From: Escherichia coli
Lineage (GTDB): Bacteria > Pseudomonadota > Gammaproteobacteria > Enterobacterales > Enterobacteriaceae
Reading direction: 5' to 3' (one strand)
Assembly: GCF_003018255.1 (NCBI RefSeq)
Contig: NZ_CP027440.1
DNA length: 64,000 bases
The position numbers were made by a program, and so were the translations under genes. The notes under the pieces are model-generated. The model searched no databases, was not told the origin of the DNA, and saw only the letters and a list, made by a program, of their open reading frames with translations. Below, in pieces: positions 25,108-60,577 of the stretch (positions within the stretch are counted from its first letter, which is position 1; every line of letters begins with the position of its first letter).

Positions 25108-25154
25108 TGTTGTATCCTGTTTTTAAGTGATGGCGGCAGTATAGCGGCATGGGG

Positions 25155-27212
25155 TCAGAGCTTCAAAGTTTGCTCAATGTCTGGTGTTTTGTGGCACTCT
25201 TCCTCCGTCGTCAAGATGATGATGTCATCATTGGATGAAAACATGTTCTGATCCAGATTACGTGTCCTGGCCGGACAGGGCGATGCGGTTCGATAAAGTT
25301 GGCTACCGATCCAGGTATAAACATAGCGATTGTCATAAGCGAAACGTTCGGTGGTTTTCAATGGTCCATCAATAGCAAAAATTTGAATATCATCGCGTAA
25401 ACGGGAAGAGCGCATAAAGTAACCATGGCCTTTCCCGGCGTTAATCCGTTGTTTCAGGAAAGGTGCAGAAGAGTCGAGCGTTATTATTTCCAGGGTGTCT
25501 TCACCAAAAGGAGACAATTTCGCAATGTACAGATGATTTTTGTACTGCGCGACACGATCGGTGATGGGATGAAATGCTTTCGGGTCAATATCGGGGAGTT
25601 TCTCCCATTGACTCCATTGCTGGTCTGTAGAGCGAAGCTTACGCCAGCTAACATCGGTTTCGCCGACGAGAAAAGAGCCTTCGCCATCAGAATATTGAGC
25701 AATGTTAACGGATGAGTTATAGGGGATTCCCGTTGGAATAAACGCACCATCCTCAAGAAGTCTGCCGTCAAGCTCACCACTACGGTAGTTTGCCCAATAG
25801 CCATATCCTGAATCTTTGGTTTTCCATTTCACCCGCACGGCTTTGGTATTGGGAGTTGGGTAGCGCCAAAGCTGTGAGCCATCGAATGCGTAAACATAAC
25901 GATCGTCGTGTGCATACCATTTCTTGTAATGGGGGCTATCGCTAAGGTGAGCCTCATGCTCGTCAGGAACACGATAATCCATCAGGATAAGCGGCCCGGA
26001 AGAATCGAATACCTGGAGGCCATCTTCTTCTTCACCATCAGCTGGTAATTTGGTCAATAAATAGCCGTGAGTTCTTCCCGCGTTAAAGCGTTTATCTATC
26101 ACCAAACCAGGATTATCCAGTGTGACGATATTTAGCCTATTTTCGCCAAATCCCGTTTTTTTGATGGTGTACAGCTTGTCCTGATACTGAGCAACGGTAT
26201 TACTAAGAGGATGAAATTGTTCTGGATCGAGGCCGGGTAGGACTTCTTGCTGGCATTCTGGCCCTTTGCGCCATGAAACAGAGTGTTCCTGCAAAGTGAA
26301 CGCCGCGCAGCTATTTGCCCTATCTTTGTCCAGATTTCCCTGATTCAGCACCTTCCGGTGCAGGCCGCTTTTATCTCGCCAGGTTAATAACGAACCGGGC
26401 ATCCAGCGTACGACAGTAAATGTCTCTGGGTCGGCTTTAAGCTGTTCGCCATTGATTATGATTTTGGTCCGTGTACGGGCTAACGTATCCCAGGGGCCAA
26501 ATGGTACGGCAACGCAGGGGTTAAACGTGGTGGAAAACTTTCCTCGCTGATCCCAGGACTTCTGCGCCAGCACACGGAAACTCTCGGGGTCAGCGAGGCG
26601 ATGTCCATCGACATATAAGAAATTAGCGTCACGTAATATCAGCCCCAGAAAGTCAGGTTTCCAGGGGGAACGGAATTTCACCTGATGCAGCGTTTTAATA
26701 TCTAGACTATTTTCTCCGCCATTGTCATCGGTGCGCGTGCCTTCAAAATAGAGACTGTGTTTATCTGCGGCAAAATCACCCCATGCCTTGAACGAGGCGA
26801 CATCGACGGGAGGTTTGTCTGGCGGGTTTTGCACAACTTCACCCGCGTAGAGGATATAGCGACCATCGCTATGCCAGGAGTAATGAGGATACCAGGCCTG
26901 TGCGCCTTCATAGAGGTAGTCGGTTGTCAGATCAGTCAGAGGAGGTACTTTATCCCATTTGTCTAGTGTTGTCGGGTCTATTAATAAATTGGGTAAACGG
27001 CGCAAACTTTTGTAATTCACGTCAGGAAGAGAAAGATTTGTTTCTTTATAAGGGCGCAGGTATACCACGCCTTTTCCCTGTTTCTGGTAAATATTATGTT
27101 CAGGCGCGGAAAGCCGACATCCCCATGCCGACGATAAAAACAACGAACAAGACAACAAACAAACCACATTGCGAAAGTGCATAAAGCCATCCTGGCGCGA
27201 GGTGTTGATCAC
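25155..27212 (-). CDS. secreted DKNYY-repeat protein (accessory)
   Basis: 685 aa; ORF track start at 27212 is GTG, a more likely ATG with SD lies at 27182 (MHFRNVVCLLSCSLFLSSAWGC signal peptide); repeated motifs DxxYVY/DKxYY (DGRYILYAGE, DKHSLYFEG, DANFLYVDG, DDRYVYAFDG, YKNHLYIAK, YDNRYVYTWIG) characteristic of the DKNYY family; not part of the K-12 cyaY-yifL interval as I recall it. Confidence 0.6.
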   Translation of the reverse strand: MINTSRQDGFMHFRNVVCLLSCSLFLSSAWGCRLSAPEHNIYQKQGKGVVYLRPYKETNLSLPDVNYKSLRRLPNLLIDPTTLDKWDKVPPLTDLTTDYLYEGAQAWYPHYSWHSDGRYILYAGEVVQNPPDKPPVDVASFKAWGDFAADKHSLYFEGTRTDDNGGENSLDIKTLHQVKFRSPWKPDFLGLILRDANFLYVDGHRLADPESFRVLAQKSWDQRGKFSTTFNPCVAVPFGPWDTLARTRTKIIINGEQLKADPETFTVVRWMPGSLLTWRDKSGLHRKVLNQGNLDKDRANSCAAFTLQEHSVSWRKGPECQQEVLPGLDPEQFHPLSNTVAQYQDKLYTIKKTGFGENRLNIVTLDNPGLVIDKRFNAGRTHGYLLTKLPADGEEEDGLQVFDSSGPLILMDYRVPDEHEAHLSDSPHYKKWYAHDDRYVYAFDGSQLWRYPTPNTKAVRVKWKTKDSGYGYWANYRSGELDGRLLEDGAFIPTGIPYNSSVNIAQYSDGEGSFLVGETDVSWRKLRSTDQQWSQWEKLPDIDPKAFHPITDRVAQYKNHLYIAKLSPFGEDTLEIITLDSSAPFLKQRINAGKGHGYFMRSSRLRDDIQIFAIDGPLKTTERFAYDNRYVYTWIGSQLYRTASPCPARTRNLDQNMFSSNDDIIILTTEEECHKTPDIEQTLKL

Positions 27213-27291
27213 GAAACTGCTAGCAGAACATAAATCCTCACAAGTAAGCGTAACTCTCGCAGCAAATCGTCACTTTTCAGAATCCATAAAG
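27122..27291. repeat. direct repeat copy 1 (5' end and upstream region of DKNYY gene)
   Basis: About 170 bp that recur at 28208-28370 with high similarity (e.g. GAACAAGACAACAAACAAACCACATTGCGA...GCATAAAGCCATCCTGGCGCGAGGTG...CACGAAACT...ACTTTTCAGA). Confidence 0.85.
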
Positions 27292-27553
27292 GTCATCGCT
27301 ATTTTCTGATAGTTGCTGGAATAAACGTGATATTTTCATTCACGATATAAACACAATCCCGGAACTGCCCCATAGTACGGCTAATAGCATAAAAATATTC
27401 CGGATTGACCCCTGGAAGGGAGGCAATGTGGGATTCCGCCCCCCGTTGCCTTCTTTATTGTCTTTCACGAGTTGTACCCAGGTTCCACCACGGGTATCTA
27501 ACATTCGCCACATTATTACGCTTTCTGCCGAACGTGATTTTTATAGAAATCTA

Positions 27554-28108
27554 TCAATTCATTTTCCCTGTACCATAAAGTTTATCCTTCACATCCTGCC
27601 GAACGCGGGTCTTGTACCCCCCGTTGTGAAGATCTTCATACGGAGAAAAAGAATCTTTACTCCACCCCAGCAACACTTTATCGCCAGGCATAAAATGCAC
27701 GTGCAGGTAATTTTCTCCCCATTCTCTTTTTGGGAGAGGTAACGTCATATTGCGTTTCTCCAGACGCATTCCAGCATTATACTGTGTACGAGTAGTACTT
27801 AATGTCCATATAACCTCTGCCGTATCCCCACTGACATCACCGCAACAGGTGATTGAACCGCCACCATTCGCAAAAGCATTCGCGCCCGCCACGCCGTTAA
27901 CACTGAATCCCAGTATCGGACGGTCAATTTCACTGTGGATTTCCAGTATCACTCCACCTCTTGGTCCTCCCCATACTGCCTGTCCTATATTCCACAACAC
28001 GACCAGTACTGGAACGACAATTAACGTCCGCCATACCCAGCGCCCCCAGCGGGCATAACCGCGCGTAAGCTTTTGGTCAAATTTTTCCAGTTGGGTAAAT
28101 AGCCCCAT
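27554..28108 (-). CDS. DUF3304-like membrane-anchored protein (accessory)
   Basis: 184 aa; N-terminal TM helix (WRTLIVVPVLVVLWNIGQAVWG); Gly-rich core (GFSVNGVAGANAFANGGGSITCCGDVSG) resembling DUF3304 proteins; family assignment from memory. Confidence 0.5.
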   Translation of the reverse strand: MGLFTQLEKFDQKLTRGYARWGRWVWRTLIVVPVLVVLWNIGQAVWGGPRGGVILEIHSEIDRPILGFSVNGVAGANAFANGGGSITCCGDVSGDTAEVIWTLSTTRTQYNAGMRLEKRNMTLPLPKREWGENYLHVHFMPGDKVLLGWSKDSFSPYEDLHNGGYKTRVRQDVKDKLYGTGKMN

Positions 28109-28207
28109 CGATTTTATTCCCTCTTCTCACCTGGTTGGCAAAGTTGCACGTCACTGGCGACTAAGGTCAGACAACGAAATTTCGTGGTACGCCACTCTCT
28201 TAAAAGT

Positions 28208-28370
28208 CCCATGCAGGCGATAAGAACAAGACAACAAACAAACCACATTGCGATAGTGCATAAAGCCATCCTGGCGCGAGGTGCCGATCACGAAACTACC
28301 AGCAAAACATAAATCGCCACGTGTAAGCGTTATACTCGCAGCATTTCCTCACTTTTCAGACTTCATAAAG
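28208..28370. repeat. direct repeat copy 2 with frameshifted signal-peptide remnant
   Basis: Second copy of the 27122-27291 repeat; contains a 20-codon remnant ORF on the minus strand (MHYRNVVCLLSCSYRLHGTF-stop) created by a 7-bp deletion relative to copy 1. Confidence 0.8.
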
Positions 28371-28449
28371 AGTCGCTAAACGCTTGCTTTTACGCCTTCT
28401 CCTGCGATGATAGAAAGCAGAAAGCGATGAACTTTACAGGCAATCCATA

Positions 28450-28653
28450 ATGAAAAACGTGTTTAAGGCACTCACTGTATTACTTACTCTCTTCAGCCTG
28501 ACGGGCTGCGGTCTGAAAGGTCCGCTCTATTTCCCGCCTGCAGATAAAAACGCACCGCCGCCGACCAAACCGGTAGAGATGCAAACGCAATCCACGGTGC
28601 CGGATAAAAACGACCGCGCCACTGGCGATGGTCCATCCCAGGTGAATTACTAA
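28450..28653 (+). CDS. yifL: small lipoprotein YifL
   Basis: 67 aa; lipobox LTGC in the signal peptide (MKNVFKALTVLLTLFSLTGCG); immediately upstream of dapF. Confidence 0.85.
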   Translation: MKNVFKALTVLLTLFSLTGCGLKGPLYFPPADKNAPPPTKPVEMQTQSTVPDKNDRATGDGPSQVNY

Positions 28654-28689
28654 AAGTCAGTTTCTGTACCCGCGTGATTGGAGTAAATG

Positions 28690-29514
28690 ATGCAGTTCTC
28701 GAAAATGCATGGCCTTGGCAACGATTTTATGGTCGTCGACGCGGTAACGCAGAATGTCTTTTTTTCACCGGAGCTGATTCGTCGCCTGGCGGATCGGCAC
28801 CTGGGGGTAGGGTTTGACCAGCTGCTGGTGGTTGAGCCGCCGTATGATCCTGAACTGGATTTTCACTATCGCATTTTCAATGCTGATGGCAGTGAAGTGG
28901 CGCAGTGCGGCAACGGTGCGCGCTGCTTTGCCCGTTTTGTGCGCCTGAAAGGGCTGACTAATAAGCGCGATATCCGCGTCAGCACCGCCAACGGGCGGAT
29001 GGTTCTGACCGTCACCGATGATGATCTGGTCCGCGTAAATATGGGCGAACCCAACTTCGAACCTTCCGCCGTGCCGTTTCGCGCTAACAAAGCGGAAAAG
29101 ACCTATATTATGCGCGCCGCCGAGCAGACAATCTTATGCGGCGTGGTGTCGATGGGAAATCCGCATTGCGTGATTCAGGTCGATGATGTCGATACCGCGG
29201 CGGTAGAAACGCTTGGTCCTGTTCTGGAAAGCCACGAACGTTTCCCGGAGCGCGCCAATATCGGTTTTATGCAAGTGGTTAAGCGCGAGCATATTCGTTT
29301 ACGCGTTTATGAGCGTGGGGCAGGAGAAACCCAGGCCTGCGGCAGCGGCGCGTGTGCGGCGGTTGCAGTAGGGATTCAGCAAGGTTTGCTGGCCGAAGAA
29401 GTACGCGTGGAACTCCCCGGCGGTCGTCTTGATATCGCCTGGAAAGGTCCGGGTCACCCGTTATATATGACTGGCCCGGCGGTACATGTCTACGACGGAT
29501 TTATTCATCTATGA
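28690..29514 (+). CDS. dapF: diaminopimelate epimerase
   Basis: 274 aa from ATG 28690 ([17 protein letters not shown]); catalytic Cys motifs (GNGARC, ACGSGA). Confidence 0.9.
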
Positions 29515-30218
29515 AGCAACCAGGGGAAGAACTGCAGGAAACACTCACGGAGCTTGATGACCGGGCGGTTGTCGATTATCTGATTAAAAATCCTGAGTTT
29601 TTTATCCGCAATGCGCGCGCAGTAGAAGCGATACGTGTGCCGCATCCGGTACGCGGCACCGTTTCGTTGGTCGAGTGGCACATGGCCCGCGCACGTAATC
29701 ACATTCATGTTCTGGAAGAGAACATGGCGTTGTTGATGGAGCAGGCTATCGCCAACGAAGGCCTGTTTTATCGCTTACTCTACTTGCAGCGTAGTCTCAC
29801 CGCCGCCAGCAGTCTCGACGATATGCTGATGCGCTTTCACCGCTGGGCGCGCGATCTCGGCCTGGCGGGTGCGAGCCTGCGCCTGTTCCCGGATTGCTGG
29901 CGTTTAGGTGCGCCGTCGAACCACACTCATCTGGCATTAAGCCGTCAGTCTTTCGAACCGCTGCGTATTCAGCGTTTGGGGCAGGAACAGCACTATCTTG
30001 GGCCGCTTAACGGACCGGAGCTGCTGGTGGTGCTACCGGAAGCGAAAGCGGTGGGATCGGTGGCGATGTCGATGCTGGGAAGCGATGCTGATTTGGGTGT
30101 CGTGCTGTTTACCAGTCGCGATGCCAGTCACTATCAACAAGGGCAGGGAACGCAGTTACTTCATGAAATTGCGCTGATGTTGCCGGAGCTTCTGGAGCGT
30201 TGGATTGAACGCGTATGA
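29511..30218 (+). CDS. yigA: DUF484 protein YigA
   Basis: 235 aa; start overlaps dapF stop; conserved dapF-yigA-xerC-yigB operon order. Confidence 0.8.
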
Positions 30219-31111
30219 CCGATTTACACACCGATGTAGAACGCTACCTACGTTATCTGAGCGTGGAGCGTCAGCTTAGCCCGATAACCCTACTTAACTA
30301 TCAGCGTCAGCTTGAGGCGATCATCAATTTTGCCAGTGAAAACGGCCTGCAAAGCTGGCAGCAATGTGATGTGACGATGGTGCGCAATTTCGCTGTACGC
30401 AGCCGCCGTAAAGGGCTGGGAGCTGCAAGTCTGGCGTTACGGCTTTCTGCGCTACGTAGCTTTTTTGACTGGCTGGTCAGCCAGAACGAACTCAAAGCCA
30501 ACCCGGCGAAAGGTGTTTCGGCACCGAAAGCGCCGCGTCATCTGCCGAAAAACATCGACGTCGATGATATGAATCGGCTGCTGGATATTGATATCAACGA
30601 TCCCCTCGCCGTGCGCGATCGGGCAATGCTGGAAGTGATGTACGGCGCGGGTCTGCGTCTTTCCGAACTGGTGGGGCTCGATATCAAACACCTCGACCTG
30701 GAGTCCGGCGAAGTGTGGGTGATGGGAAAAGGCAGCAAAGAGCGCCGCCTGCCGATTGGTCGCAACGCTGTGGCGTGGATTGAGCACTGGCTTGATTTGC
30801 GCGACCTGTTTGGTAGCGAAGACGACGCGCTTTTTCTGTCGAAACTGGGCAAGCGTATCTCCGCGCGTAATGTGCAGAAACGCTTTGCCGAATGGGGCAT
30901 CAAACAAGGGCTGAATAATCACGTTCACCCGCATAAATTACGTCACTCGTTCGCTACGCATATGCTGGAGTCGAGCGGCGATCTTCGTGGTGTGCAGGAG
31001 CTGCTGGGTCATGCCAACCTCTCCACCACGCAAATCTATACTCATCTTGATTTTCAACACCTTGCCTCGGTGTACGATGCGGCGCATCCACGCGCCAAAC
31101 GGGGGAAATAA
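30215..31111 (+). CDS. xerC: tyrosine recombinase XerC
   Basis: 298 aa; C-terminal catalytic signature [15 protein letters not shown]...[15 protein letters not shown] (R-H-R-Y tyrosine recombinase). Confidence 0.9.
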
Positions 31112-31827
31112 TGCGTTTTTACCGGCCTTTGGGGCGCATCTCGGCGCTCACCTTTGACCTGGATGATACCCTTTACGATAACCGTCCGGTGATTTTGCGC
31201 ACCGAGCGAGAGGCGCTTACCTTTGTGCAAAATTATCATCCGGCGCTGCGCAGCTTCCAGAATGAAGATCTGCAACGCCTGCGCCAGGCGGTACGGGAAG
31301 CGGAACCCGAGATTTATCACGACGTGACGCGCTGGCGTTTTCGTTCGATTGAACAAGCCATGCTCGACGCCGGGCTGAGTGCCGAAGAAGCCAGTGCAGG
31401 CGCACACGCAGCAATGATCAACTTTGCCAAATGGCGCAGCCGAATCGATGTCCCGCAGCAAACCCACGACACCTTAAAACAGCTGGCGAAGAAATGGCCG
31501 CTGGTGGCGATCACCAACGGTAACGCCCAGCCGGAGCTGTTTGGTTTAGGGGATTATTTTGAGTTTGTGTTGCGCGCTGGCCCGCACGGGCGCTCAAAAC
31601 CGTTCAGCGATATGTACTTCCTGGCGGCGGAAAAACTCAACGTGCCGATCGGCGAGATCTTACATGTTGGGGACGATCTCACCACTGACGTGGGTGGGGC
31701 AATTCGCAGCGGAATGCAGGCCTGTTGGATCAGACCGGAAAATGGCGATCTGATGCAAACCTGGGACAGCCGTTTACTGCCGCATCTGGAAATTTCCCGG
31801 TTGGCATCTCTGACCTCGCTGATATAA
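31111..31827 (+). CDS. yigB: HAD-family phosphatase YigB
   Basis: 238 aa; HAD motif [10 protein letters not shown] near N-terminus; operon position after xerC. Confidence 0.85.
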
Positions 31828-31836
31828 TCAGCAAAT

Positions 31837-31852
31837 CTGTATATATACCCAG
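31837..31852 (+). promoter_or_regulatory. LexA (SOS) box of uvrD
   Basis: CTGTATATATACCCAG fits the CTGT-N8-ACAG consensus and lies about 60 bp upstream of the uvrD ATG. Confidence 0.8.
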
Positions 31853-31910
31853 CTTTTTGGCGGAGGGCGTTGCGCTTCTCCGCCCAACCTATTTTTACGC
31901 GGCGGTGCCA

Positions 31911-34073
31911 ATGGACGTTTCTTACCTGCTCGACAGCCTTAATGACAAACAGCGCGAAGCGGTGGCCGCGCCACGCAGCAACCTTCTGGTGCTGGCGGGC
32001 GCGGGCAGTGGTAAGACGCGCGTACTGGTGCATCGTATCGCCTGGCTGATGAGCGTGGAAAACTGCTCGCCATACTCGATTATGGCGGTGACGTTTACCA
32101 ACAAAGCGGCGGCGGAGATGCGTCATCGTATCGGGCAACTGATGGGCACCAGCCAGGGCGGCATGTGGGTCGGCACCTTCCACGGGCTGGCGCACCGTCT
32201 GCTGCGTGCGCACCATATGGACGCCAATCTGCCGCAGGATTTTCAGATCCTCGACAGCGAGGACCAGCTACGCCTGCTCAAACGCCTAATCAAGGCGATG
32301 AACCTCGACGAGAAGCAGTGGCCGCCGCGCCAGGCAATGTGGTACATCAACAGCCAGAAAGATGAAGGCCTGCGTCCACATCATATTCAAAGCTACGGTA
32401 ATCCGGTGGAGCAGACCTGGCAGAAGGTGTATCAGGCGTATCAGGAAGCGTGTGACCGCGCGGGCCTGGTGGACTTCGCCGAGCTGCTGCTACGTGCTCA
32501 CGAGTTGTGGCTTAACAAGCCGCATATCCTTCAGCACTATCGCGAACGGTTTACCAATATCCTGGTGGATGAATTCCAGGATACCAACAACATTCAGTAT
32601 GCGTGGATCCGCCTGCTGGCGGGCGATACCGGCAAAGTGATGATCGTTGGCGATGACGACCAGTCAATCTACGGCTGGCGTGGGGCGCAGGTCGAGAATA
32701 TTCAGCGTTTCCTCAATGATTTCCCCGGTGCTGAAACTATCCGTCTGGAGCAGAACTACCGCTCTACCAGCAATATTCTGAGCGCCGCTAACGCCCTGAT
32801 TGAAAACAATAACGGGCGTCTGGGTAAAAAACTGTGGACCGATGGCGCGGACGGTGAGCCTATTTCCCTCTATTGCGCTTTTAACGAACTCGACGAAGCG
32901 CGTTTTGTGGTTAACCGTATCAAGACCTGGCAGGACAATGGCGGGGCGCTTGCCGAGTGCGCCATTCTCTACCGCAGCAACGCCCAGTCGCGTGTACTGG
33001 AAGAAGCACTGTTGCAGGCGAGTATGCCGTACCGTATTTACGGCGGGATGCGCTTCTTCGAACGCCAGGAAATCAAAGATGCGCTCTCGTATCTGCGCCT
33101 GATTGCCAACCGTAATGACGACGCGGCGTTTGAGCGCGTGGTGAATACACCAACGCGGGGTATTGGTGACCGGACGCTGGACGTGGTACGTCAGACATCG
33201 CGCGATCGCCAGTTAACACTCTGGCAGGCATGTCGTGAACTGTTGCAGGAAAAAGCCCTCGCCGGACGTGCTGCCAGTGCCTTACAGCGGTTTATGGAAC
33301 TGATCGACGCCTTAGCGCAGGAAACTGCCGATATGCCGCTGCATGTACAGACTGACCGGGTAATTAAAGACTCCGGCCTGCGCACAATGTACGAGCAGGA
33401 GAAAGGCGAAAAAGGCCAGACGCGTATCGAAAACTTAGAGGAACTGGTAACGGCGACGCGCCAGTTCAGCTACAACGAAGAAGACGAAGATTTAATGCCG
33501 CTGCAGGCGTTCCTCTCCCATGCGGCACTGGAAGCGGGCGAGGGGCAGGCGGATACCTGGCAGGATGCGGTGCAGTTGATGACGCTACACTCGGCGAAAG
33601 GTCTGGAATTCCCGCAGGTGTTTATCGTTGGTATGGAAGAGGGCATGTTCCCAAGCCAGATGTCGCTGGATGAAGGCGGGCGTCTGGAAGAAGAACGCCG
33701 TCTGGCCTACGTTGGCGTAACCCGCGCGATGCAGAAACTGACGCTGACCTACGCGGAAACCCGCCGTCTATATGGCAAAGAGGTTTACCATCGCCCGTCG
33801 CGCTTTATCGGTGAGTTGCCGGAAGAGTGTGTGGAAGAGGTGCGCCTGCGCGCCACGGTAAGCCGCCCGGTCAGCCATCAACGGATGGGGACGCCGATGG
33901 TCGAGAACGACAGCGGCTACAAGCTCGGCCAGCGCGTACGCCACGCTAAGTTTGGTGAAGGCACCATCGTCAATATGGAAGGCAGCGGTGAGCATAGCCG
34001 TTTGCAGGTGGCGTTCCAGGGCCAGGGTATTAAATGGCTGGTGGCGGCTTACGCCCGGTTGGAGACGGTGTGA
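31911..34073 (+). CDS. uvrD: DNA helicase II
   Basis: ORF track extends to 31725, but ATG at 31911 (MDVSYLLDSLNDKQREAV) gives the expected 720 aa; Walker A GAGSGKTRV; UvrD/Rep helicase motifs. Confidence 0.9.
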   Translation: MDVSYLLDSLNDKQREAVAAPRSNLLVLAGAGSGKTRVLVHRIAWLMSVENCSPYSIMAVTFTNKAAAEMRHRIGQLMGTSQGGMWVGTFHGLAHRLLRAHHMDANLPQDFQILDSEDQLRLLKRLIKAMNLDEKQWPPRQAMWYINSQKDEGLRPHHIQSYGNPVEQTWQKVYQAYQEACDRAGLVDFAELLLRAHELWLNKPHILQHYRERFTNILVDEFQDTNNIQYAWIRLLAGDTGKVMIVGDDDQSIYGWRGAQVENIQRFLNDFPGAETIRLEQNYRSTSNILSAANALIENNNGRLGKKLWTDGADGEPISLYCAFNELDEARFVVNRIKTWQDNGGALAECAILYRSNAQSRVLEEALLQASMPYRIYGGMRFFERQEIKDALSYLRLIANRNDDAAFERVVNTPTRGIGDRTLDVVRQTSRDRQLTLWQACRELLQEKALAGRAASALQRFMELIDALAQETADMPLHVQTDRVIKDSGLRTMYEQEKGEKGQTRIENLEELVTATRQFSYNEEDEDLMPLQAFLSHAALEAGEGQADTWQDAVQLMTLHSAKGLEFPQVFIVGMEEGMFPSQMSLDEGGRLEEERRLAYVGVTRAMQKLTLTYAETRRLYGKEVYHRPSRFIGELPEECVEEVRLRATVSRPVSHQRMGTPMVENDSGYKLGQRVRHAKFGEGTIVNMEGSGEHSRLQVAFQGQGIKWLVAAYARLETV

Positions 34074-34117
34074 CGTTGCGGGATGCGGTGCGCCACACCG
34101 CATTCCGCATCAGCACC

Positions 34118-51270: not shown

Positions 51271-51528
51271 TCAGAAGAGGTTGTCTTGTTGTTCTTTGAT
51301 AAGATTCAATCCATATTGAGAAACTCTGTAGCGTGGTTTAGAGTTGCCCTCACCATTTACGATATCAACCAACCCATGATTAACCAGCTTTGTTACGATA
51401 TTCGCTACGTTGCCAAATCCTGGAATATTTCGTATAGCTAAAGTACGATCCAGCACCATCCAGCTCCAGTCAATATCTTTCTCAGCCATAACTTTCAGCA
51501 CGTTAAATTCAACTATCGTAATCGTCAT
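51271..51528 (-). CDS. putative cognate immunity protein of the Hcp-fusion effector
   Basis: 85 aa; start codon overlaps the stop of the upstream Hcp-fusion gene (ATGA at 51525-51528), the arrangement typical of effector-immunity pairs. Confidence 0.55.
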   Translation of the reverse strand: MTITIVEFNVLKVMAEKDIDWSWMVLDRTLAIRNIPGFGNVANIVTKLVNHGLVDIVNGEGNSKPRYRVSQYGLNLIKEQQDNLF

Positions 51529-52658: not shown

Positions 52659-53049
52659 CCTTGAAAAACCTTTTGTTAATTCTTTTGTGAAAGAAAAATA
52701 GTATTGTTATTTTTTACCTTTATTTACGCCCAAAAGGGATGAACTAAAATGTGAAAAACAAAATGTTTCACTTTAATATCTTTTTATCAGGAAGGTCTGA
52801 GATAATTTATAATTAATGTGAATGTGTTGATAATAATTAATGTTTGTTTGAGAATGGGAGTTGATGGTAAATCTCTAAGGTGTCTGCCAGTGAAGAGACT
52901 CATTTATGACTATGACTTGCCGACTTTCTTAAGGTCAAATAGCGGAGTCGTGCTCTCCAATCAATTCATACTGATTATTTTTTGGGGGACAGAGATGGCA
53001 GCAAAATGCACTCGTTCACTCACCATCTCAAATATAGACTAAGAGGAAA

Positions 53050-53865
53050 CTAATTCCGCTTCCCACCATACTGCTTAAACCACTCCAGCATACGCTGCCA
53101 GCCATCTTTCGCAGATTCGGCATGATAGCTCGGGCGATAATCGGCGTTGAATGCATGCCCGGCATCCGGGTAGACGATAATCTCTGCTTTCGCATTAGCA
53201 GCCCGCAGCGCCTGGCGCATGGTTTCAACGCTCTCCTGCGGAATGCTGTTATCCTGACCACCATATAAGCCGAGAACCGGCGCGTTAAGATCGGTTGCGA
53301 TATCAACAGGTTGTTTCGGTGAATTCAGCGACTTGTCGCCCGTCAGTTTGCCGTACCACGCCACTGCGGCTTTTAGCTGTGGATTATGCGCGGCATACAG
53401 CCAGGTGATACGTCCACCCCAGCAGAATCCGGTGATCATTAAACGATGAACATCGCCGCCGTTGCGGGAAGCCCAACTGGCGACATGATCGAGATCGGCC
53501 AGCACCTGCGAGTCAGGCACTTTTGCTACCAGACCGCTAAGCAACGTGGGGATATCGGCAAAATCATTCGGATCGCCTTCGCGGAAGTAAAGTTCAGGTG
53601 CAATAGCCAGATACCCCTCCAGCGCCAGACGGCGACAAATGTCGCGGATATGTTCATGCACGCCAAAAATTTCCTGCACTACAATGACCACTGGCAGTGG
53701 GCCATCGCTTTGCTTTGGTCTGGCATGGTAAGCAGGCATGTTATCCCCTTGTGAAGGGATAGAGGTGAAGCCCGCCACAATCGCGTCGTCCGGAGTCTGA
53801 ACGATGGTCGAAGCGAGAGGCGATGCCGCAGGTGCAAATCCAGATTGTTGTGTTGTTGCCATGGT
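53050..53865 (-). CDS. ysgA: dienelactone hydrolase-family protein YsgA
   Basis: ORF track starts at 53928; ATG at 53865 (MATTQQSGFAPAASPL) gives ~271 aa; alpha/beta hydrolase with GFCWGG nucleophile motif. Confidence 0.8.
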   Translation of the reverse strand, partial: TMATTQQSGFAPAASPLASTIVQTPDDAIVAGFTSIPSQGDNMPAYHARPKQSDGPLPVVIVVQEIFGVHEHIRDICRRLALEGYLAIAPELYFREGDPNDFADIPTLLSGLVAKVPDSQVLADLDHVASWASRNGGDVHRLMITGFCWGGRITWLYAAHNPQLKAAVAWYGKLTGDKSLNSPKQPVDIATDLNAPVLGLYGGQDNSIPQESVETMRQALRAANAKAEIIVYPDAGHAFNADYRPSYHAESAKDGWQRMLEWFKQYGGKRN

Positions 53866-54123: not shown

Positions 54124-54888
54124 ATGTCCAAGTCTGATGTTTTTCATCTCGGCCTCACTAAAAACGATTTACAAGGGGCTACGCTTGCCATCGTCCCTGG
54201 CGACCCGGATCGTGTGGAAAAGATCGCCGCGCTGATGGATAAGCCGGTTAAGCTGGCATCTCACCGCGAATTCACCACCTGGCGTGCAGAGCTGGATGGT
54301 AAACCTGTTATCGTCTGCTCTACCGGTATCGGCGGCCCGTCTACCTCTATTGCTGTTGAAGAGCTGGCACAGCTGGGCATTCGCACCTTCCTGCGTATCG
54401 GTACAACGGGCGCTATTCAGCCGCATATTAATGTGGGTGATGTCCTGGTTACCACGGCGTCTGTTCGTCTGGACGGCGCGAGCCTGCACTTCGCACCGCT
54501 GGAATTCCCGGCTGTCGCTGATTTCGAATGTACGACTGCGCTGGTTGAAGCGGCGAAGTCAATTGGTGCCACCACTCACGTTGGTGTGACGGCTTCTTCT
54601 GATACCTTCTACCCGGGTCAGGAACGTTACGATACTTACTCTGGTCGCGTAGTTCGTCACTTTAAAGGTTCTATGGAAGAGTGGCAGGCGATGGGCGTAA
54701 TGAACTATGAAATGGAATCTGCAACCCTGCTGACCATGTGTGCAAGTCAGGGCCTGCGTGCCGGTATGGTAGCGGGGGTTATCGTTAACCGCACCCAGCA
54801 AGAGATCCCGAATGCTGAGACGATGAAACAAACCGAGAGCCATGCGGTGAAAATCGTGGTGGAAGCGGCGCGTCGTCTGCTGAAATAA
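54124..54888 (+). CDS. udp: uridine phosphorylase
   Basis: 253 aa from ATG 54124 ([35 protein letters not shown]); PNP/UDP family. Confidence 0.9.
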
Positions 54889-54913
54889 AAAACGCTCCCC
54901 AACTTCGGGGAGC
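54889..54913. terminator. hairpin terminator shared by udp and the convergent tct operon
   Basis: GCTCCCC-AACTTC-GGGGAGC hairpin; the T-run lies on the minus-strand side (complement of AAAAAACG), so it is best placed to terminate the minus-strand tct operon. Confidence 0.6.
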
Positions 54914-54921
54914 GATATCAG

Positions 54922-56412
54922 TTACTGACGCCGTAAACGCATTATTTTGCGGATTATTGGCGTCAGTAGCGTAAAGGCTGCCAGAGTTAGCAATGCCAGA
55001 GTGATCGGTCGGGTATACAGAAAGTCCAGTGAACCCCCTGAAAGCGACAGCGCACGGCGAAAATTACTTTCTGCCATCGGGCCCATAATCAATGCCAGCA
55101 CTACGGGTGATGCCGGATATCCTCCTTTCTGCATGAAATAGCCCACCACGCCTGCAATCAGCATAATGCCAACATCAAACAGGCTATTGTTCAACGCATA
55201 AGTCCCGACCACACAAAGTGCGAGGATCATCGGTGTGAGAATATTGCCGGGGATCTTCACCACGTTACCGATGACTTTCAAAGAGAGCAGTCCAAGAACT
55301 AGCAGCATGAAGTAACAAAAGATCATGCCGACAAACAGTGTATAAACCATATCGCCGTGGTCGGTAAACATCAGCGGGCCTGGTTGCATTCCCTGTAACG
55401 TTAACGCGCCCAGCATGATGGCGGTTACCGCATCGCCAGGGATCCCCAGCGTCAGCATAGGTAACAATGCGCCACCGGTGCAGCCATTCGCGCCTGCCTC
55501 ACAGGAGGCCACAGCTTTAATTTCACCCTTACCAAAGTTTTCTGGTGTCTTACTGAAACGACGAGTTTCGTTATAGGCAACAAAAGCTGCAATATCCGCC
55601 CCCGCACCGGGGATCATGCCGATAAAAACCCCTAATCCTGATGAGCGCAAAATGGTTAATGCAATGCGGCGTAGTGTTTGCCAGGGCAGTAACAGACTGC
55701 CGATAGCCACCTTCGCCCCCTGACGAATTTGCTGGTTTTGCTCCATAGAGCGGAATGCTTCTGAAGCAGCAAATAAACCAATCATCACCGGGATAAATGG
55801 CACATTCATCAGCTCCACAAATCCACCTGTAAACCGTGGAAAACCGCCCATTGGATCAAGGCCTATCGTTGCGATCAGCAATCCGCCAACCCCGGCAATC
55901 AGCCCTTTAATCAGCGACTCACCGGAAATACTGGCAATAATACTCAGTCCGAAGGTTGCCAGGGCGAAGGACTCCGAGGCACTAAATTTCAGCGCCCAAC
56001 TGGCAAGTACCGGAGAGAGAAACATCAGCACGATAATGCTGAGCGTTCCGCCACTAAAGGAAGAGAACGTGGCGGCACTCAATGCCAGCCCTGCTTTTCC
56101 CTGTTTCGTCAGCTCATAACCATCAATAGCGGTGGCTGCGGCGGCAGGCGTTCCGGGAATTTTGAGCAAAATTGCGGTGATAGAACCACCGTAGACGCCA
56201 CCAAAAAAGACGCCGCAAATCATCAACAAGCCAGAAACAGGCTCCATGCCGTAGGTGAAAGGCAGCAAAATCGCCACACCCATGGTCGCTGTCAGACCAG
56301 GCAAAGCGCCAATCACAATACCCAGCATCACCCCAAAAGTGGCAAACAGCAGCGCCTGAGGATTATTGAGTAATGTCGAAAAACCCTGAGTTAAAAGTTC
56401 ACTTTCAAACAT
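54922..56412 (-). CDS. tctA: tripartite tricarboxylate transporter large permease
   Basis: 496 aa, many TM helices; TctA-family features (GAITAILLKIPGTPAAAAT, GMIPGAGADIAAFVAYNE). Confidence 0.75.
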   Translation of the reverse strand: MFESELLTQGFSTLLNNPQALLFATFGVMLGIVIGALPGLTATMGVAILLPFTYGMEPVSGLLMICGVFFGGVYGGSITAILLKIPGTPAAAATAIDGYELTKQGKAGLALSAATFSSFSGGTLSIIVLMFLSPVLASWALKFSASESFALATFGLSIIASISGESLIKGLIAGVGGLLIATIGLDPMGGFPRFTGGFVELMNVPFIPVMIGLFAASEAFRSMEQNQQIRQGAKVAIGSLLLPWQTLRRIALTILRSSGLGVFIGMIPGAGADIAAFVAYNETRRFSKTPENFGKGEIKAVASCEAGANGCTGGALLPMLTLGIPGDAVTAIMLGALTLQGMQPGPLMFTDHGDMVYTLFVGMIFCYFMLLVLGLLSLKVIGNVVKIPGNILTPMILALCVVGTYALNNSLFDVGIMLIAGVVGYFMQKGGYPASPVVLALIMGPMAESNFRRALSLSGGSLDFLYTRPITLALLTLAAFTLLTPIIRKIMRLRRQ

Positions 56413-56424
56413 TGCTGGCCCCTG

Positions 56425-56934
56425 TTATTCGAAAAATGTGCCGACAGGCAATGGCACCTGTAACGCTTCGACAAACAGCAACCAGAGGATTGCCGTTAAC
56501 AGCAGCGCAATACCCGGTGTGAGTACCCATCGCCTGTAGCCCATCAACGTCATAATGACGATGAGGAAAACAGGAGTAGTAATGAGATAACCGCAGTAGC
56601 TCATCGCCACAATATAAAACGCGGTTGCCGCAATTCCTGTTGCTGTTTTCCTGAATGCCGGTTTTTCCTGTGCGTTGGCGCAAGAGGCTGGTTTTGCCTG
56701 CAAAAGATCGCGTATCACCAGCAAGACAGCGAGCACAATCAGGGCACAGGCATAGAAGGTAGGGAAGGCACTTGCACCGGGATCCGTTTCAATGGCAGTT
56801 GCTGGAAAATCAGCGGCATTAATCATCACCGCGCCAGCAACCACACAAAGTAACAGCGCCACCACCATCGTTGATGAAAGGCGCTTGCGGTGCGGTACGG
56901 CGAGTTGAGCAACAGACTGTTTTGTGTTCATCAA
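56425..56934 (-). CDS. tctB: tripartite tricarboxylate transporter small membrane subunit
   Basis: 169 aa with 4 TM helices, between tctC-like and tctA-like genes. Confidence 0.65.
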   Translation of the reverse strand: MMNTKQSVAQLAVPHRKRLSSTMVVALLLCVVAGAVMINAADFPATAIETDPGASAFPTFYACALIVLAVLLVIRDLLQAKPASCANAQEKPAFRKTATGIAATAFYIVAMSYCGYLITTPVFLIVIMTLMGYRRWVLTPGIALLLTAILWLLFVEALQVPLPVGTFFE

Positions 56935-56947
56935 CCGTACCTCAGGT

Positions 56948-57922
56948 TTATTTTTTCAGGCCCAGGCGAGTCAGCAACTCGTCAAAGTACTTTTCCTGTT
57001 CGCTGATTTGGGTCTGGAAGCTGGCAGCGTCAAGCCATGCATAGTTGAGATTCAACTTTTGCAGTGCATCCTGGAATGCAGGCTCTTCAGCCGTCTCTTT
57101 TGCTGCCTTTGCCAGAACATCCACCACATCCTGCGGCGTTTTTTGCGACACAATCAGGCCGCGCCAGGTGCCGATGGAGAGATCAACGCCTTTCTCTTTT
57201 AACGTCGGGACGTCAGGCATGGTTTTCATTCGCTCATCCGCCATCACTACCAGTGTCTTCAGCTTGCCGCCATTCACATGGTTGATAACTTCTCCTGGGC
57301 TTACGGAAACCGCTTCAATATGCCCGCCTAACAGGCCTGTAATGGCAGGGGCTGCGCCGTCATACGGGACATGAGAAAACTTTGTGCCCGTTTTGTCTTC
57401 CAGTGCAGCTGCCGCCAGATGCCAGATAGCTCCGGTGCCTGAGTTACCAATGCGTACTTTTCCGGGATTCGCTTTGGAGTAAGCCATAAATTCTTCATAG
57501 CTATTCCACGGCGCATCGGCACGGACTGTGATAGCAGCCGGATCCGCATTCAGACGGGCAATGGGTTTAAAGTCGCTGGTTTTAAAACGCACCATTCCGA
57601 GGCTGGGAAGGGTGGTCAGTTCAACCGTGCCTAAACCAATTTTGTAACCGTTAGGGCGGGCAGCGGCGATTTCACTCAGGCCGATAGCACCGCCTCCGCC
57701 AGGTTTATTGATAACCCCGATGCTGACGGGTAAATGGTTTTTGGCGGCATCAGCAAAGGCACGGGCAACCAGATCCGTACCGCCTCCGGCAGCGTAGGGA
57801 ACGACTAACTCGATCTGTTTGGTTGGGTAGGAGGCAGCCTGTACAGGCGCAATGCTGAGGGCAGCGCCTGCAAGAAGTACCATTGCAGCCATTTTTTTCG
57901 GTAAGGTAAGATGTTTTATCAT
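56948..57922 (-). CDS. tctC: tripartite tricarboxylate transporter periplasmic substrate-binding protein (Bug/TctC family)
   Basis: 324 aa; signal peptide; Bug-family architecture (IELVVPYAAGGGTDLVAR, GNSGTGAIWHLAA). Confidence 0.75.
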   Translation of the reverse strand: MIKHLTLPKKMAAMVLLAGAALSIAPVQAASYPTKQIELVVPYAAGGGTDLVARAFADAAKNHLPVSIGVINKPGGGGAIGLSEIAAARPNGYKIGLGTVELTTLPSLGMVRFKTSDFKPIARLNADPAAITVRADAPWNSYEEFMAYSKANPGKVRIGNSGTGAIWHLAAAALEDKTGTKFSHVPYDGAAPAITGLLGGHIEAVSVSPGEVINHVNGGKLKTLVVMADERMKTMPDVPTLKEKGVDLSIGTWRGLIVSQKTPQDVVDVLAKAAKETAEEPAFQDALQKLNLNYAWLDAASFQTQISEQEKYFDELLTRLGLKK

Positions 57923-57946
57923 TGCTTTTATATCCTTATTTATCAG

Positions 57947-58576
57947 TTAGTTGCTATTTAAATTGTTCCATGCGTTCATAAACAGTACTGCATTTTCATA
58001 GACTTGCTCTGGCGTCATGCCGGGGCGATATAGCGCAGAACCGAGGCCAAAGCCGTTTGCGCCGTGGCTCAGATAACGCGCCATGGTTTCCGGTGTGATA
58101 CCGCCAACCGGTAACATCGGAACGGATTGTGGAATAACCGCACGCCAGGCTTTGGTAACTTCTGGCGTAATTTGTTCAGCCGGGAACAGCTTGATGGCAT
58201 TAGCACCATGTTCAATGGCAGCAAAGGCTTCGGTGGGCGTGGCGACGCCAGGCGCACAATACATACCCAGCGCACGGGCGCGACGGATCACCGCAGTATC
58301 GCAATGCGGCATCACGATAATCTGGCCCCCAGCCTCTTTAACCGCAACCACCTGCTCTACCGAAAGCACAGTTCCGGCTCCGACCAGGCAGTCCTTAGGC
58401 AGGGCGTCGCGCAGTAAACTGATACTTTGCAACGCCTCCGGCGAGTTCATAGGAATCTCAATCAGGCGGAATCCGGCGGCGTACAGTTTTTCACCGATGG
58501 CGACAATCTCATCCGGTTTCACGCCGCGTAAAATGGCGACTAACCCGGTTTTTTGCAAAAGTGTATTAAATGGCAT
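57947..58576 (-). CDS. 2-dehydro-3-deoxy-6-phosphogalactonate (KDPGal) aldolase-like
   Basis: ORF track starts at 58651; ATG at 58576 with SD (MPFNTLLQKTGLVAILRGVKPDE) aligns along its length with remembered E. coli DgoA (KLPLIAILRGITPDE...EIPLNSP...GAGTVL...VGGVTPEN). Confidence 0.75.
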   Translation of the reverse strand: MPFNTLLQKTGLVAILRGVKPDEIVAIGEKLYAAGFRLIEIPMNSPEALQSISLLRDALPKDCLVGAGTVLSVEQVVAVKEAGGQIIVMPHCDTAVIRRARALGMYCAPGVATPTEAFAAIEHGANAIKLFPAEQITPEVTKAWRAVIPQSVPMLPVGGITPETMARYLSHGANGFGLGSALYRPGMTPEQVYENAVLFMNAWNNLNSN

Positions 58577-59570
58577 GGGTACATTCCCTGGCGTTGGTGG
58601 ACAGTAACCCGGCAGCGTGGGCGATTCGCCATAATCCATGTTCAGTGGCATTAGGAATGGCGTGTATCTGTCTGTCGGGAAAAACGTGGCTGAATGCTTG
58701 TGAATAGCGGCTGTTCAGATTTGCGCTACCGATTAAGGCGATCGGTGTTGTGGCGGGTAAATCACGTAGCAAACTGGATGCCAGACCACATAATTCATGG
58801 CCTATCAGTAATCCGGAAAGGTAATCCCCCTGCGAGGACGACGTAAGATTACTGGTCAGCAGGCGCGAACGGGTCGAAAACAGCGTCGATAATAATCCGG
58901 TCTGATGATGCTCTTGTGCTGCTGTCAGCCCGTGGGTGAAGGCATCCCAGTGCGGTTCATCTCCAGGATGCATGGTGGCACCGAGAATCGAATGGCGGGA
59001 TAAAACATCAAATAACTCGCCCGTCATAAAGGTTCGGAAATCGGTAATGGTGTTGTTTTCAACTACTGCCCATTTCGCATGTGTGCCGGGTAAGCCTATC
59101 AGCACTGGCATACCCTGATGGATCGCGTTTTGCAGGGCCGGTTCCATCGAGATAGCACCGAAGATTTGTGTCTCTTCGCCACGCATCACTTCGGGCATTT
59201 CACCTTCTTTAATCACGCCAGGAATGATGTGCAGCATTGTCTGCTGCTGGTGGATAACAGGCGTCAACTGCTTCGCCAGACCCTCGAGAGTGACCGGGCA
59301 AGGTAAATAAGCTGCTGATTGCCACCCTTGCGCACTGCCGAGCATGCCGCAAGCCAGTACCGGGCATGGGGTTTGTGCCAGCCAGTCGCCGCAGACACGT
59401 AAAAACGTATCGTGGAAAGCGTCCTCACGTGTTGCTGCCTGGGAGGGTAATTTCATGATCCCCCAGGGGAATTCACGTTTTTCTTGTGGATTTGGTGATT
59501 CGCCAAAACGCCATGCCCGAAGCGATGACGTTCCCCAGTCCAGGGCAATAAATGAGGGTGCTCCCGGCAT
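58566..59570 (-). CDS. 2-dehydro-3-deoxygalactonokinase-like
   Basis: 334 aa; IALDWGTSSLRAW and VMRGEETQIFGA motifs match DgoK (IAIDWGSTNLRAW, VMRGEETQLIGA); 3' end overlaps the aldolase start. Confidence 0.75.
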   Translation of the reverse strand: MPGAPSFIALDWGTSSLRAWRFGESPNPQEKREFPWGIMKLPSQAATREDAFHDTFLRVCGDWLAQTPCPVLACGMLGSAQGWQSAAYLPCPVTLEGLAKQLTPVIHQQQTMLHIIPGVIKEGEMPEVMRGEETQIFGAISMEPALQNAIHQGMPVLIGLPGTHAKWAVVENNTITDFRTFMTGELFDVLSRHSILGATMHPGDEPHWDAFTHGLTAAQEHHQTGLLSTLFSTRSRLLTSNLTSSSQGDYLSGLLIGHELCGLASSLLRDLPATTPIALIGSANLNSRYSQAFSHVFPDRQIHAIPNATEHGLWRIAHAAGLLSTNARECTHAI

Positions 59571-59593
59571 TAGTCGTTTCCTTTAATCATGGT

Positions 59594-60361
59594 TTATTTA
59601 TCTTTGCGGACGTGCTTACCCCAGCCCAGTTCAGCGGATATCTCTTCTGCACAGGATTTGACGTAAGGTGCCAGTTCTTCCAGACGCGCCAGCGACATAT
59701 ACGTGGTGGTACTGGCGACAGAAATAGCCGCCACAATTTCATCCCGGGCGTTGTAAACCGGCGCTGCAACGCAACGGATAGTCGGCTCGTTCTCTTCCAG
59801 ATCAAAAGCAAAACCACTGGCGGCATAACGACGCATGTTCTGAATAAATGCGCCCAGTTTTGTTTCATCACCACAGGTCTTAAACAGCGTGCGCCACTCT
59901 TCTTCTGTTCGGTTGAGGATCAATGCCTTGCCGATGCCGGTGATTGCCAGTGGCATGCGATGGCCTGGGCGTGAGCGCATTTCCAGCCCGCGCTGACTGT
60001 TGATCTTCTCCAGATACAGCACTTCGTCGCCTTCAACGATCCCCAGATGCACGGTGTCCAGGGTGTAACGGGCAAGGCGTTGCAAAACGGGCTGGGCAAT
60101 TTCGTACAGTGAGGTGCTTTCCAGTGCTCTGGCACCGAATTCGATCAGTTTGGCACCCAGTTGGTAGCCCTGCGTTGGGACATGGCGCAGGTAGCGTTGT
60201 TCCACCAGAACGGTGACTAAACGATGGGTTGTGCTCCGGGTCGTGCCGGTGAACTCGCCGATACTTTTTAGGTCATGGCAGCCGTTATAAACAGCATTAA
60301 GAACCGCCAGTCCACGTAATAACGTTTGTGCGCCTGCGGTGGTTGAAGAGGTTTCTGCCAT
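59594..60361 (-). CDS. IclR/KdgR-family transcriptional regulator
   Basis: ORF track starts at 60535; ATG at 60361 with AGGAG SD (MAETSSTTAGAQTLLRGLAVLNAV) gives ~255 aa; N-terminal winged HTH and C-terminal effector domain laid out as in KdgR. Confidence 0.7.
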   Translation of the reverse strand: MAETSSTTAGAQTLLRGLAVLNAVYNGCHDLKSIGEFTGTTRSTTHRLVTVLVEQRYLRHVPTQGYQLGAKLIEFGARALESTSLYEIAQPVLQRLARYTLDTVHLGIVEGDEVLYLEKINSQRGLEMRSRPGHRMPLAITGIGKALILNRTEEEWRTLFKTCGDETKLGAFIQNMRRYAASGFAFDLEENEPTIRCVAAPVYNARDEIVAAISVASTTTYMSLARLEELAPYVKSCAEEISAELGWGKHVRKDK

Positions 60362-60422
60362 ACGTTTCTCCTGATGATATTGCTGAAGTGTTCCACATAA
60401 TGACGTGGGGAAAAGGTGATAT

Positions 60423-60458
60423 ATCCCACAATATAAACTCCATCTCATATTGTGGGAT
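60423..60458. promoter_or_regulatory. perfect inverted repeat, candidate operator of the IclR-family regulator
   Basis: ATCCCACAATAT-N12-ATATTGTGGGAT, 12-bp perfect arms, 60-100 bp upstream of the regulator start and about 120 bp upstream of rmuC. Confidence 0.4.
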
Positions 60459-60577
60459 AAAATAATGAAAATTAACGATCGTTTTGCGTAGCGCCTCGCA
60501 GGAAATGCCTTTCCAACTGGACGTTTGTACAGCACAATTCTATTTTGTGCGGGTAAGTTGTTGCGTCAGGAGGCGTT

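Follow-up and report, generated by a model that had tools for sequence, protein, structure and literature searches.

Five accessory segments between conserved genes of the cyaA-ubiB region

The 64,000-nucleotide stretch of DNA analyzed here (hereafter, the window) is a piece of the Escherichia coli chromosome that runs from cyaA to ubiB. It is 100% identical over 24 kb to strain JNE23-011, whose annotation by the Prokaryotic Genome Annotation Pipeline (PGAP) provided the gene names used below, and only 3 of 5,426 complete genomes match that 24-kb stretch at 99% identity or more. The window was compared by BLAST with E. coli K-12 MG1655, and the unmatched blocks were defined as segments S1 to S5. 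These five blocks lie in the same five intervals that a first-pass annotation, made from the letters of the window, had described as cargo insertions. Our analysis shows that they are five real strain-variable accessory modules at multi-allelic intergenic loci, which were probably spread, swapped and lost mainly through homologous recombination of the host and which left scars at installation. Three of the segments (S1, S3, and S4) are predicted to be interbacterial-competition cassettes and the other two (S2 and S5) are predicted to be metabolic.

S1 (25227-28224) is located between cyaY and lptM (also named yifL) and is unmatched in K-12 save for an 82%-identical stub. S2 (34100-35101), also unmatched in K-12, lies between uvrD and yigE; S3 (37188-38731) between corA and rarD; S4 (50779-53058) between metE and ysgA; and S5 (54887-60481) between udp and rmuC. 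All five segments, as well as yigE and the yigG remnant beside S3, are assigned to the minus strand. The flanking and cargo genes at all five sites are intact according to the annotation of the identical genome, the flanks were found in 5,425 of the 5,426 genomes, and their synteny is kept in the outgroups. The junctions of S4 and S5 fall within or adjoin the stop codons of metE, ysgA, and udp, and the K-12 filler at sites that would be called empty consists of a REP-containing stretch of 119 bp (S2) or of terminator hairpins (S4 and S5). GC-content windows, one of the checks that had been proposed, set apart only some of the cargo: S3 (34%) and S4 (35-41%) are low, S1 and S2 with yigE lie at 45-50%, and S5 is core-like (50-58%).

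The first-pass annotation was largely right, and its statement that the segments sit exactly between intact core genes holds in that the five segments are real and their flanks intact. It fails in four respects: S3 replaces yigF-yigG, the K-12 site of S1 is not empty, S1 contains a 147-bp direct repeat, and yigE is not a core gene beyond Escherichia. A comparison with K-12 alone thus misreads the history of the region, as some of the "insertions" are K-12 losses or replacements. It should be noted that the density of strain-specific islands in E. coli comparisons is reportedly about five variable sites per 35 kb (Perna et al., 2001), so the clustering of the five sites is unremarkable.

None of the five segments encodes its own mobility. 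No integrase or transposase was found in the window through PGAP names and NCBIfam scans, and no tRNA gene lies near the segments, since ARAGORN places the tRNAs of the window only at 13412-13848, more than 11 kb away. A repeat search and base-level inspection of the junctions found no terminal inverted repeats, bracketing direct repeats or target-site duplications around any of the five segments in the window, and an Rfam search of positions 24000-61500 returned zero matches. The absence of integrase, transposase, tRNA attachment site, and inverted terminal repeats noted in the first reading of the window is therefore borne out. Extending the inspection to nine further alleles (K-12, HS-02, UTI89, O157, E. 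coli B, ST95-32, 7_14_47A, S. arizonae, and Buttiauxella), we found no integrase or transposase gene or fragment annotated at these sites, so the degraded insertion sequence (IS) or integrase remnants that would have spoken against the earlier proposal were not seen. In addition, the cargo is single-copy in nearly every carrier genome (median of 1 place per genome) and hence does not correspond to fragments of IS or of miniature inverted-repeat transposable elements. Of the traits of classical islands, then, the integrase is absent from all ten alleles, there is no insertion at a tRNA site, and target direct repeats are absent at the segment ends of the window; direct repeats are present around a cassette internal to S1 and around S3 in 1,431 other genomes.

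Distribution and divergence of the segments

All five intervals are multi-allelic in E. coli, as the pan-genome comparison suggested by the first-pass annotation revealed. Across the 5,426 complete genomes surveyed, three to five states were observed per site, and carriage ranged from 2% to 48%, far from uniform presence. The S1 block is complete in 128 genomes and present at least in part in 5,049; S2 is carried by 2,412 genomes (94-100% identity), S3 by 2,623, S4 by 841 as a full block and by 1,211 in any part, and S5 by 1,452, of which 1,420 are at least 99% identical. The S2 and S5 sites each occur in a present, an absent, and a decayed allele, the latter 77-78% identical.

To place these alleles in a wider context, we used an outgroup set of 80 loci across Enterobacterales obtained by a RecQ-anchored scan, with gene order determined by tblastn; the scan gave no E. 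fergusonii, E. marmotae or E. ruysiae, and its E. albertii contig ends in yigG. Outside Escherichia, the cyaY-lptM interval measures 128-139 bp in 15 of 17 loci and the metE-ysgA interval 131 bp or less in 18 of 28. In most outgroup loci the uvrD-corA interval spans about 300-470 bp, with neither S2 nor yigE, and in 12 outgroup loci, including that of E. albertii, rmuC directly follows udp, leaving no S5. Short empty intervals in the outgroups indicate that the cargo is derived. The corA-rarD, metE-ysgA, and uvrD-corA intervals hold varied unrelated genes in other genera, and these three sites are therefore variable well beyond E. coli.

An indication of exchange between lineages comes from S4 and S5. 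Relative to UTI89 (B2), S4 and S5 of the window are 99.15% and 99.07% identical, compared with 96.55% for metE, 96.43% for rmuC, 97.0% for pldB-metR, and 94.46% for rarD-rhtB. The comparison with E. coli B gave the same picture, with cargo closer than flanks. That the cargo has diverged three to four times less than the DNA on either side means that it crossed between lineages after their split and, with mobility genes lacking, spread through recombination in the flanks is the simplest explanation. The flanking core DNA is itself an identity mosaic, with at least 129 recombination events by the four-gamete test (Rm) in 24.7 kb among four to six genomes, an absolute value only. Incongruence between cargo and flanks, assessed here by identity, was thus found for S4 and S5 (about 99.1% vs. 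96.5%); S3 is a mosaic, and S2 diverges like the core (96.0-96.5% vs. 95.9-97.9% for uvrD).

This last value is also what would be expected if all five blocks had been present in the E. coli ancestor and deleted in K-12-like strains, with no horizontal transfer. In keeping with such a history, K-12, O157, and HS-02 keep a stub of the S1 gene, HS-02 holds decayed pseudogene alleles of S2 and S5, and a precise loss of S3 can be seen in O157:H7 (see below). Even so, vertical descent does not predict the low divergence of S4 and S5 between phylogroups. Moreover, S5 is absent from E. albertii and 11 other outgroup loci and S4 from most outgroups, S3 truncates yigG, whose same-site homologs in E. 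albertii and two other genera make yigFG older, and a GC content of 34-38% marks S3 and S4 as foreign. We therefore regard ancestral presence with differential loss as an improbable account of the five segments.

The decayed alleles of HS-02 deserve mention in their own right. This strain, alone among the 5,426 genomes, carries frameshifted or decayed alleles of S2 and of the right part of S5 (locus 12684-13541 and 30433-31843). Their identity of 77-78% implies a second lineage of both islands at the same sites, presumably much older or foreign.

A predicted colicin M-like cassette replaces yigF and yigG between corA and rarD

S3 comprises two genes that overlap by 4 bp: a predicted toxin gene of the DUF3289/YPO3983 family (37717-38565; Pfam DUF3289, E = 7e-83; TIGR03034, 406 bits) and a gene named DUF943 by PGAP (37223-37720) that encodes a predicted immunity protein. 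For one member of the DUF3289/DUF943 family, experiments have demonstrated that the pair consists of a colicin M-like periplasmic toxin and its immunity protein (PMC11148199). As in that pair, a full-length DUF3289 protein is followed in S3 by an overlapping DUF943 gene, which identifies S3 as a predicted colicin M-like toxin-immunity cassette. It differs from the published pair in that the toxin stands alone, with no PIX, WHIX, VgrG or Rhs domain, and that the cassette occupies a fixed chromosomal site. A DUF943/DUF3289 (YPO3983) pair that is 62-63% identical is also encoded between corA and rarD in S. enterica subsp. arizonae.

S3 extends from the corA stop codon into yigG, of which an 88-bp remnant with the first 29 codons is left (38732-38819; the yigG start at K-12 locus 12607-12694). 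S3 is therefore a replacement of yigF-yigG rather than an insertion into a spacer. In E. albertii, Pseudescherichia, and Kosakonia, the corA-rarD interval holds homologs of yigF and yigG, making yigFG the older occupant of the site. Four states were distinguished: intact yigFG (2,396 genomes); S3 with the yigG remnant; S3, then a duplicate of the corA 3' end (corA', 147 bp) and a 975-bp segment, which we call X (O157:H7 and 1,430 other genomes); and corA joined straight to X (25 genomes). S3 itself falls into two identity classes.

The last of these states documents an excision. Z1835, an O157:H7 strain and one of the 25 genomes in which corA adjoins X, shows no mismatch with the S3-bearing strain Z1832 over 4,304 bp of flanks, and its corA 3' end is a hybrid, corA-type in its left part and corA'-type in its right. 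This shows that S3 was lost precisely, by crossover between the two corA repeats.

An insertion of prophage e14 into icd supplies a new 3' end of the gene and leaves the old one as a duplicate. The O157-type allele, in which corA is followed by the cassette and the 147-bp copy of the corA 3' end, resembles this arrangement, also in that recombination between the copies removes the insert. The resemblance raises the question of whether the segments are decayed integrative elements, that is, remnants of integrase-bearing islands that targeted gene 3' ends such as that of corA. The low GC content of S3 and S4 would agree with such an origin, as would the reported frequent location of PIX-type orphan effectors of type VI secretion systems (T6SS) beside transposases, integrases, and prophages. 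In contrast to e14, the O157-type allele has no integrase, excisionase or phage gene, its insert is only 1.6 kb long, and the window allele has lost the duplicate copy. Taking into account that at these sites the annotation of every allele inspected lacks an integrase or transposase gene, even as a fragment, that the cargo is single-copy, that the cassettes measure only 0.9-1.6 kb, and that recombination of the host between repeats accounts for the observed excision, we consider this origin very improbable. The repeat scars are not evidence of an integrase.

Comparison of the corA 3' ends did not tell the native copy from the cassette-borne one. We also considered whether a deletion at a 17-bp microhomology could have turned the O157-type allele into the window type; this is unsupported, as base-level alignment gives only about 1 bp shared at the junction.

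Segment X (O157:H7 Z1832, 26272-27251; oriented 18756-19730) is AT-rich and encodes two small membrane-like open reading frames (ORFs) between corA' and rarD. Neither K-12 nor the window nor any of the 80 outgroup loci contains a homolog of it that blastn, tblastx or tblastn could detect, and the idea that X is a diverged yigFG was dropped on this ground.

Within S3, the best-matching strain alternates from bin to bin at the 500-bp scale (37501-38500). The C-terminus of the toxin and the N-terminus of the immunity protein are O157-like (99.2%), and the N-terminus of the toxin is UTI89-like (99.0%). This pattern suggests recombination inside the cassette that kept the toxin end and the immunity gene together.

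The adjacent core block rarD-rhtB (38876-44646) is only 92-95% identical to K-12, HS-02, UTI89, and O157, and far more diverged than its neighbors, which suggests that this haplotype was imported from a distant Escherichia lineage. Import together with S3 was rejected, since S3 is 97-99.8% identical to UTI89, against about 94.5% for the block.

A repeat-flanked predicted immunity gene in the cyaY-lptM segment

S1 carries a gene (25155-27212) for a secreted repeat protein of 685 amino acids whose relatives bear the NCBI name "DKNYY family." The protein has a signal-peptide-like N-terminus and internal repeated motifs, and it had no match in sequence searches of Pfam, NCBIfam, and the PDB. Its relatives in ST95-32 and 7_14_47A are encoded by two adjacent paralogous genes, and the window gene appears to be a fusion of the two. 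K-12 retains at this site a 264-bp stub that is 82% identical to the 5' end of the gene and is therefore a deletion derivative. The states of the site are thus the stub, the two genes, the two genes with a DUF3304 cassette, and the fused gene with this cassette. A 108 amino acid stretch beside lptM in Citrobacter sp. FP75 (locus 3-326) is 75% identical to the N-terminus of the 685 amino acid protein, indicating that the cyaY-lptM site holds a relative in at least one Citrobacter.

The DUF3304 cassette (27292-28223) contains a DUF3304 gene (27554-28108) and about 75 bp of the 3' end of a DUF4123 adaptor gene. In DNA, the gene is 75-78% identical to its DUF3304 counterpart in a VgrG-DUF4123-DUF3304-Tle1 cluster; for the cluster carried by Eco889, the values are 75% in DNA and 67% in amino acids. 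The protein scored 19 bits against the Tli1a family model, below the cut-off of 110. On the basis of this gene context, we predict that DUF3304 of S1 is an orphan Tli1-like immunity gene, carved from a T6SS cluster of the VgrG-DUF4123-DUF3304-Tle1 type.

Two direct repeats flank this cassette inside S1, rather than the ends of S1. The first copy found by the repeat search (27145-27291, 147 nt) covers the 5' end and the upstream region of the 685 amino acid gene, and the second (28224-28370), 88% identical to the first, is K-12-like, adjoins lptM, and aligns with K-12 locus 3798-3943. A single repeat copy and no DUF3304 cassette were found in 509 genomes with a window-like neighboring gene (97% identical), and the same holds for ST95-32.

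Two independent cassettes, those of S1 and S3, thus share the same architecture and have clean single-copy empty alleles, and one excision is seen in O157:H7. From these observations it could be proposed that small toxin or immunity cassettes of E. coli move as repeat-flanked units with no dedicated recombinase. A homology of about 150 bp, to the 3' end of corA or, at cyaY-lptM, to the 5' end of the gene there, would allow a single host crossover that duplicates the target, and the cassette would leave by the reverse crossover, possibly as a circle able to re-enter the chromosome of another cell. We regard this as a rather unlikely general mode of movement.

A putative Hcp-toxin fusion between metE and ysgA

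S4 encodes an Hcp protein with a C-terminal extension of 230 amino acids (51525-52658; 377 amino acids, Hcp domain at residues 1-147). Two paralogous small genes lie directly downstream (51271-51528 and 50951-51196); their products, one of 81 and one of 85 amino acids, are 59% identical, and they are likely duplicated immunity genes. The extension has no match in Pfam or the PDB, including the toxin domains that Pfam names for Hcp-ET proteins. The same domain recurs behind Hcp in Salmonella and Citrobacter; in Pantoea, Cronobacter, and Atlantibacter, it is joined to another N-terminal family. Given this recurrence behind different N-terminal families, the extension reads as a polymorphic toxin domain, and fragments of it carry the names "HNH endonuclease" or "colicin" in some sources. 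The alternative N-terminal family, PF26362, could not be named from Pfam, and we do not claim that it is a PIX domain.

Hcp-ET proteins are specialized effectors of the T6SS (Ma et al., 2017; for a review, see PMC6730261). The S4 module resembles them in its N-terminal Hcp, an extension of about 230 amino acids, tandem-duplicate small downstream genes, and a site away from a T6SS cluster (there are no T6SS genes within the window), and it differs from them in that its C-terminal domain matches no named Hcp-ET toxin domain in Pfam.

The metE-ysgA interval is empty in K-12, O157, and HS-02, and holds the Hcp module alone in the window. E. coli B has there an unrelated 8.4-kb island (9740-18100 of the locus) with genes for LysR, cytosine permease, carbamate kinase, fdrA, and others, and in UTI89 the interval combines the Hcp module, the 8.4-kb island (locus 20551-33978), and hxlB, ptsG, and tkt genes. 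The 8.4-kb island is located at metE-ysgA in 1,555 genomes and also in 129 plasmid places, unlike the five cargo blocks of the window. The Hcp-toxin gene of UTI89 (locus 18933-20066) is a pseudogene with an internal stop, and both downstream small genes are intact, a state consistent with immunity being kept after loss of the toxin.

Homologs of the Hcp-toxin gene in Salmonella salamae and Citrobacter europaeus are located between yhhX and ggt, and no mobility genes were found at these loci. In C. europaeus, they are accompanied at this site by a second Hcp fusion and by several small ORFs, one of them an Imm35 gene, which together form an array.

Metabolic segments at uvrD-yigE and udp-rmuC

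The single gene of S2 (34118-35020) was assigned by PGAP to the S-adenosylmethionine (SAM) hydrolase/SAM-dependent halogenase family, with NCBIfam matches below curated cut-offs. The neighboring yigE (35103-35867; GC 45-49%) forms one low-GC block with S2, and among the sampled species it was found only in E. coli. yigE thus belongs with S2 in one island not seen outside Escherichia among the sampled relatives. The core-like divergence of S2 fits an old presence with later loss, and the absence of S2 in K-12-like lineages is probably better read as loss. A homolog of the S2 gene, 72% identical, is encoded in Edwardsiella piscicida between recQ and rhtC (locus 11843-12682), in another spacer of the same chromosomal neighborhood.

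S5 consists of six genes, identified by PGAP and NCBIfam, that encode TctA (54922-56412), TctB (56425-56931), Bug/TctC (56948-57922), a KDPGal-aldolase-like protein (57947-58576), a DgoK-like kinase (58566-59570), and an IclR regulator (59594-60361). This gene content corresponds to a predicted catabolic operon for sugar acids (keto-deoxy-sugar-acids) with a TctABC-type transporter. Buttiauxella warmboldiae encodes the whole six-gene operon between rmuC and udp in the same orientation as S5, and provides the nearest relative of the kinase outside E. coli, which is only 59% identical.

Gain, exchange, and loss of the segments by host recombination

Homologous recombination of flanking core DNA, and not mobile elements, had been proposed as the means by which the segments were acquired. 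Several of our results argue for it: the absence of mobility genes, the identity of S4 and S5 relative to their flanks, the mosaic flanks, and the same-site homologs in other genera. What does not stand is a clean double recombination at every site, as shown by the truncated yigG at S3, the corA duplication in 1,431 genomes, and the repeats around the DUF3304 cassette, and by K-12 S1 and probably S2, which look more like losses.

We therefore favor, with reasonable confidence, a history of host recombination in several steps. Each module was first installed in the Escherichia lineage, whose relatives have short empty intervals at these sites. Installation probably occurred by recombination with little or one-sided homology, either a Campbell-type single crossover or homology-facilitated illegitimate recombination; the scars it left are the truncated yigG, the 147-bp repeats around the DUF3304 cassette, and, in the sister allele of S3, the duplicated corA 3' end (about 150 bp). 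The same modules at the same sites in Buttiauxella (S5) and S. arizonae (S3) demonstrate that donor DNA with matching flanks exists, and such DNA may have taken part in the transfer. Among E. coli lineages, the modules would then have been spread, swapped, and lost by RecA-type recombination in the conserved flanks, as suggested by cargo that is less diverged than its flanks and by the multi-allelic sites. Loss also proceeds by recombination between flanking direct repeats, as seen for S3 in O157:H7. Finally, S2 and the K-12-like stubs of S1 would reflect an old presence followed by loss.

A number of observations weigh against this history or limit its reach. The installation mechanisms rest on scars, and it is possible that integrases were present and have since been lost. 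That S4 and S5 passed between lineages is evident from their low diversity, which reveals neither the vehicle nor the ends of the transferred tracts, and no recombination tract across cargo and flanks was delimited. The Rm value has no genome-wide baseline and hence does not prove the status of a hotspot, which the first-pass annotation had given to these intervals. Donors at the same site are not general either, considering that the Edwardsiella homolog of S2 lies between recQ and rhtC and that the Hcp-toxin homologs of S. salamae and Citrobacter occupy a different site, yhhX-ggt. As for the competition cassettes, delivery of the S4 protein by a T6SS is putative, and so is the T6SS link of S3, whose toxin has no recognizable delivery domain in a Pfam search.

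Relation to known recombination hotspots

A model of horizontal gene transfer hotspots free of mobile genetic elements, or replacement islands, was published in 2017 (PMC5635113) and had been proposed earlier for E. coli. The general concept is thus already published (PMC5635113), and the new elements of our analysis are local. The sites of the window resemble these hotspots in their position between conserved core genes, their alternative contents, the lack of integrases and transposases, and their mosaic flanks, and also in that lineages share cargo that is more alike than the DNA flanking it (S4 and S5). Such hotspots tend to adjoin recombination and repair genes (PMC5635113), and likewise uvrD, recQ, rmuC, and xerC are neighbors of the window sites. 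Unlike in the model, two sites bear scars that point to another first step (target duplications of about 150 bp and a truncated resident gene), and one cassette was lost by crossover between repeats and not by replacement through the flanks.

New at the local level are a reading of S3 and of part of S1 as cases of replacement and loss, the recognition of three blocks as predicted competition cassettes, and a repeat-flanked cassette architecture with one documented excision. Taken site by site, the region exemplifies how accessory genes, putative competition weapons and shields among them, are acquired, exchanged, and lost in E. coli with no mobile-element machinery, and the repeat-mediated loss of the colicin M-like cassette in O157:H7 is a concrete, testable case of excision free of mobility genes. 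These results do not overturn current understanding.

The spacer between metR and metE also varies. An ERIC/IRU-type element of about 120 bp is located there in K-12 (locus 22408-22552), O157, and E. coli B and is absent from the window (48494-48519), UTI89, and HS-02, which makes it a sixth small presence/absence polymorphism of the region.

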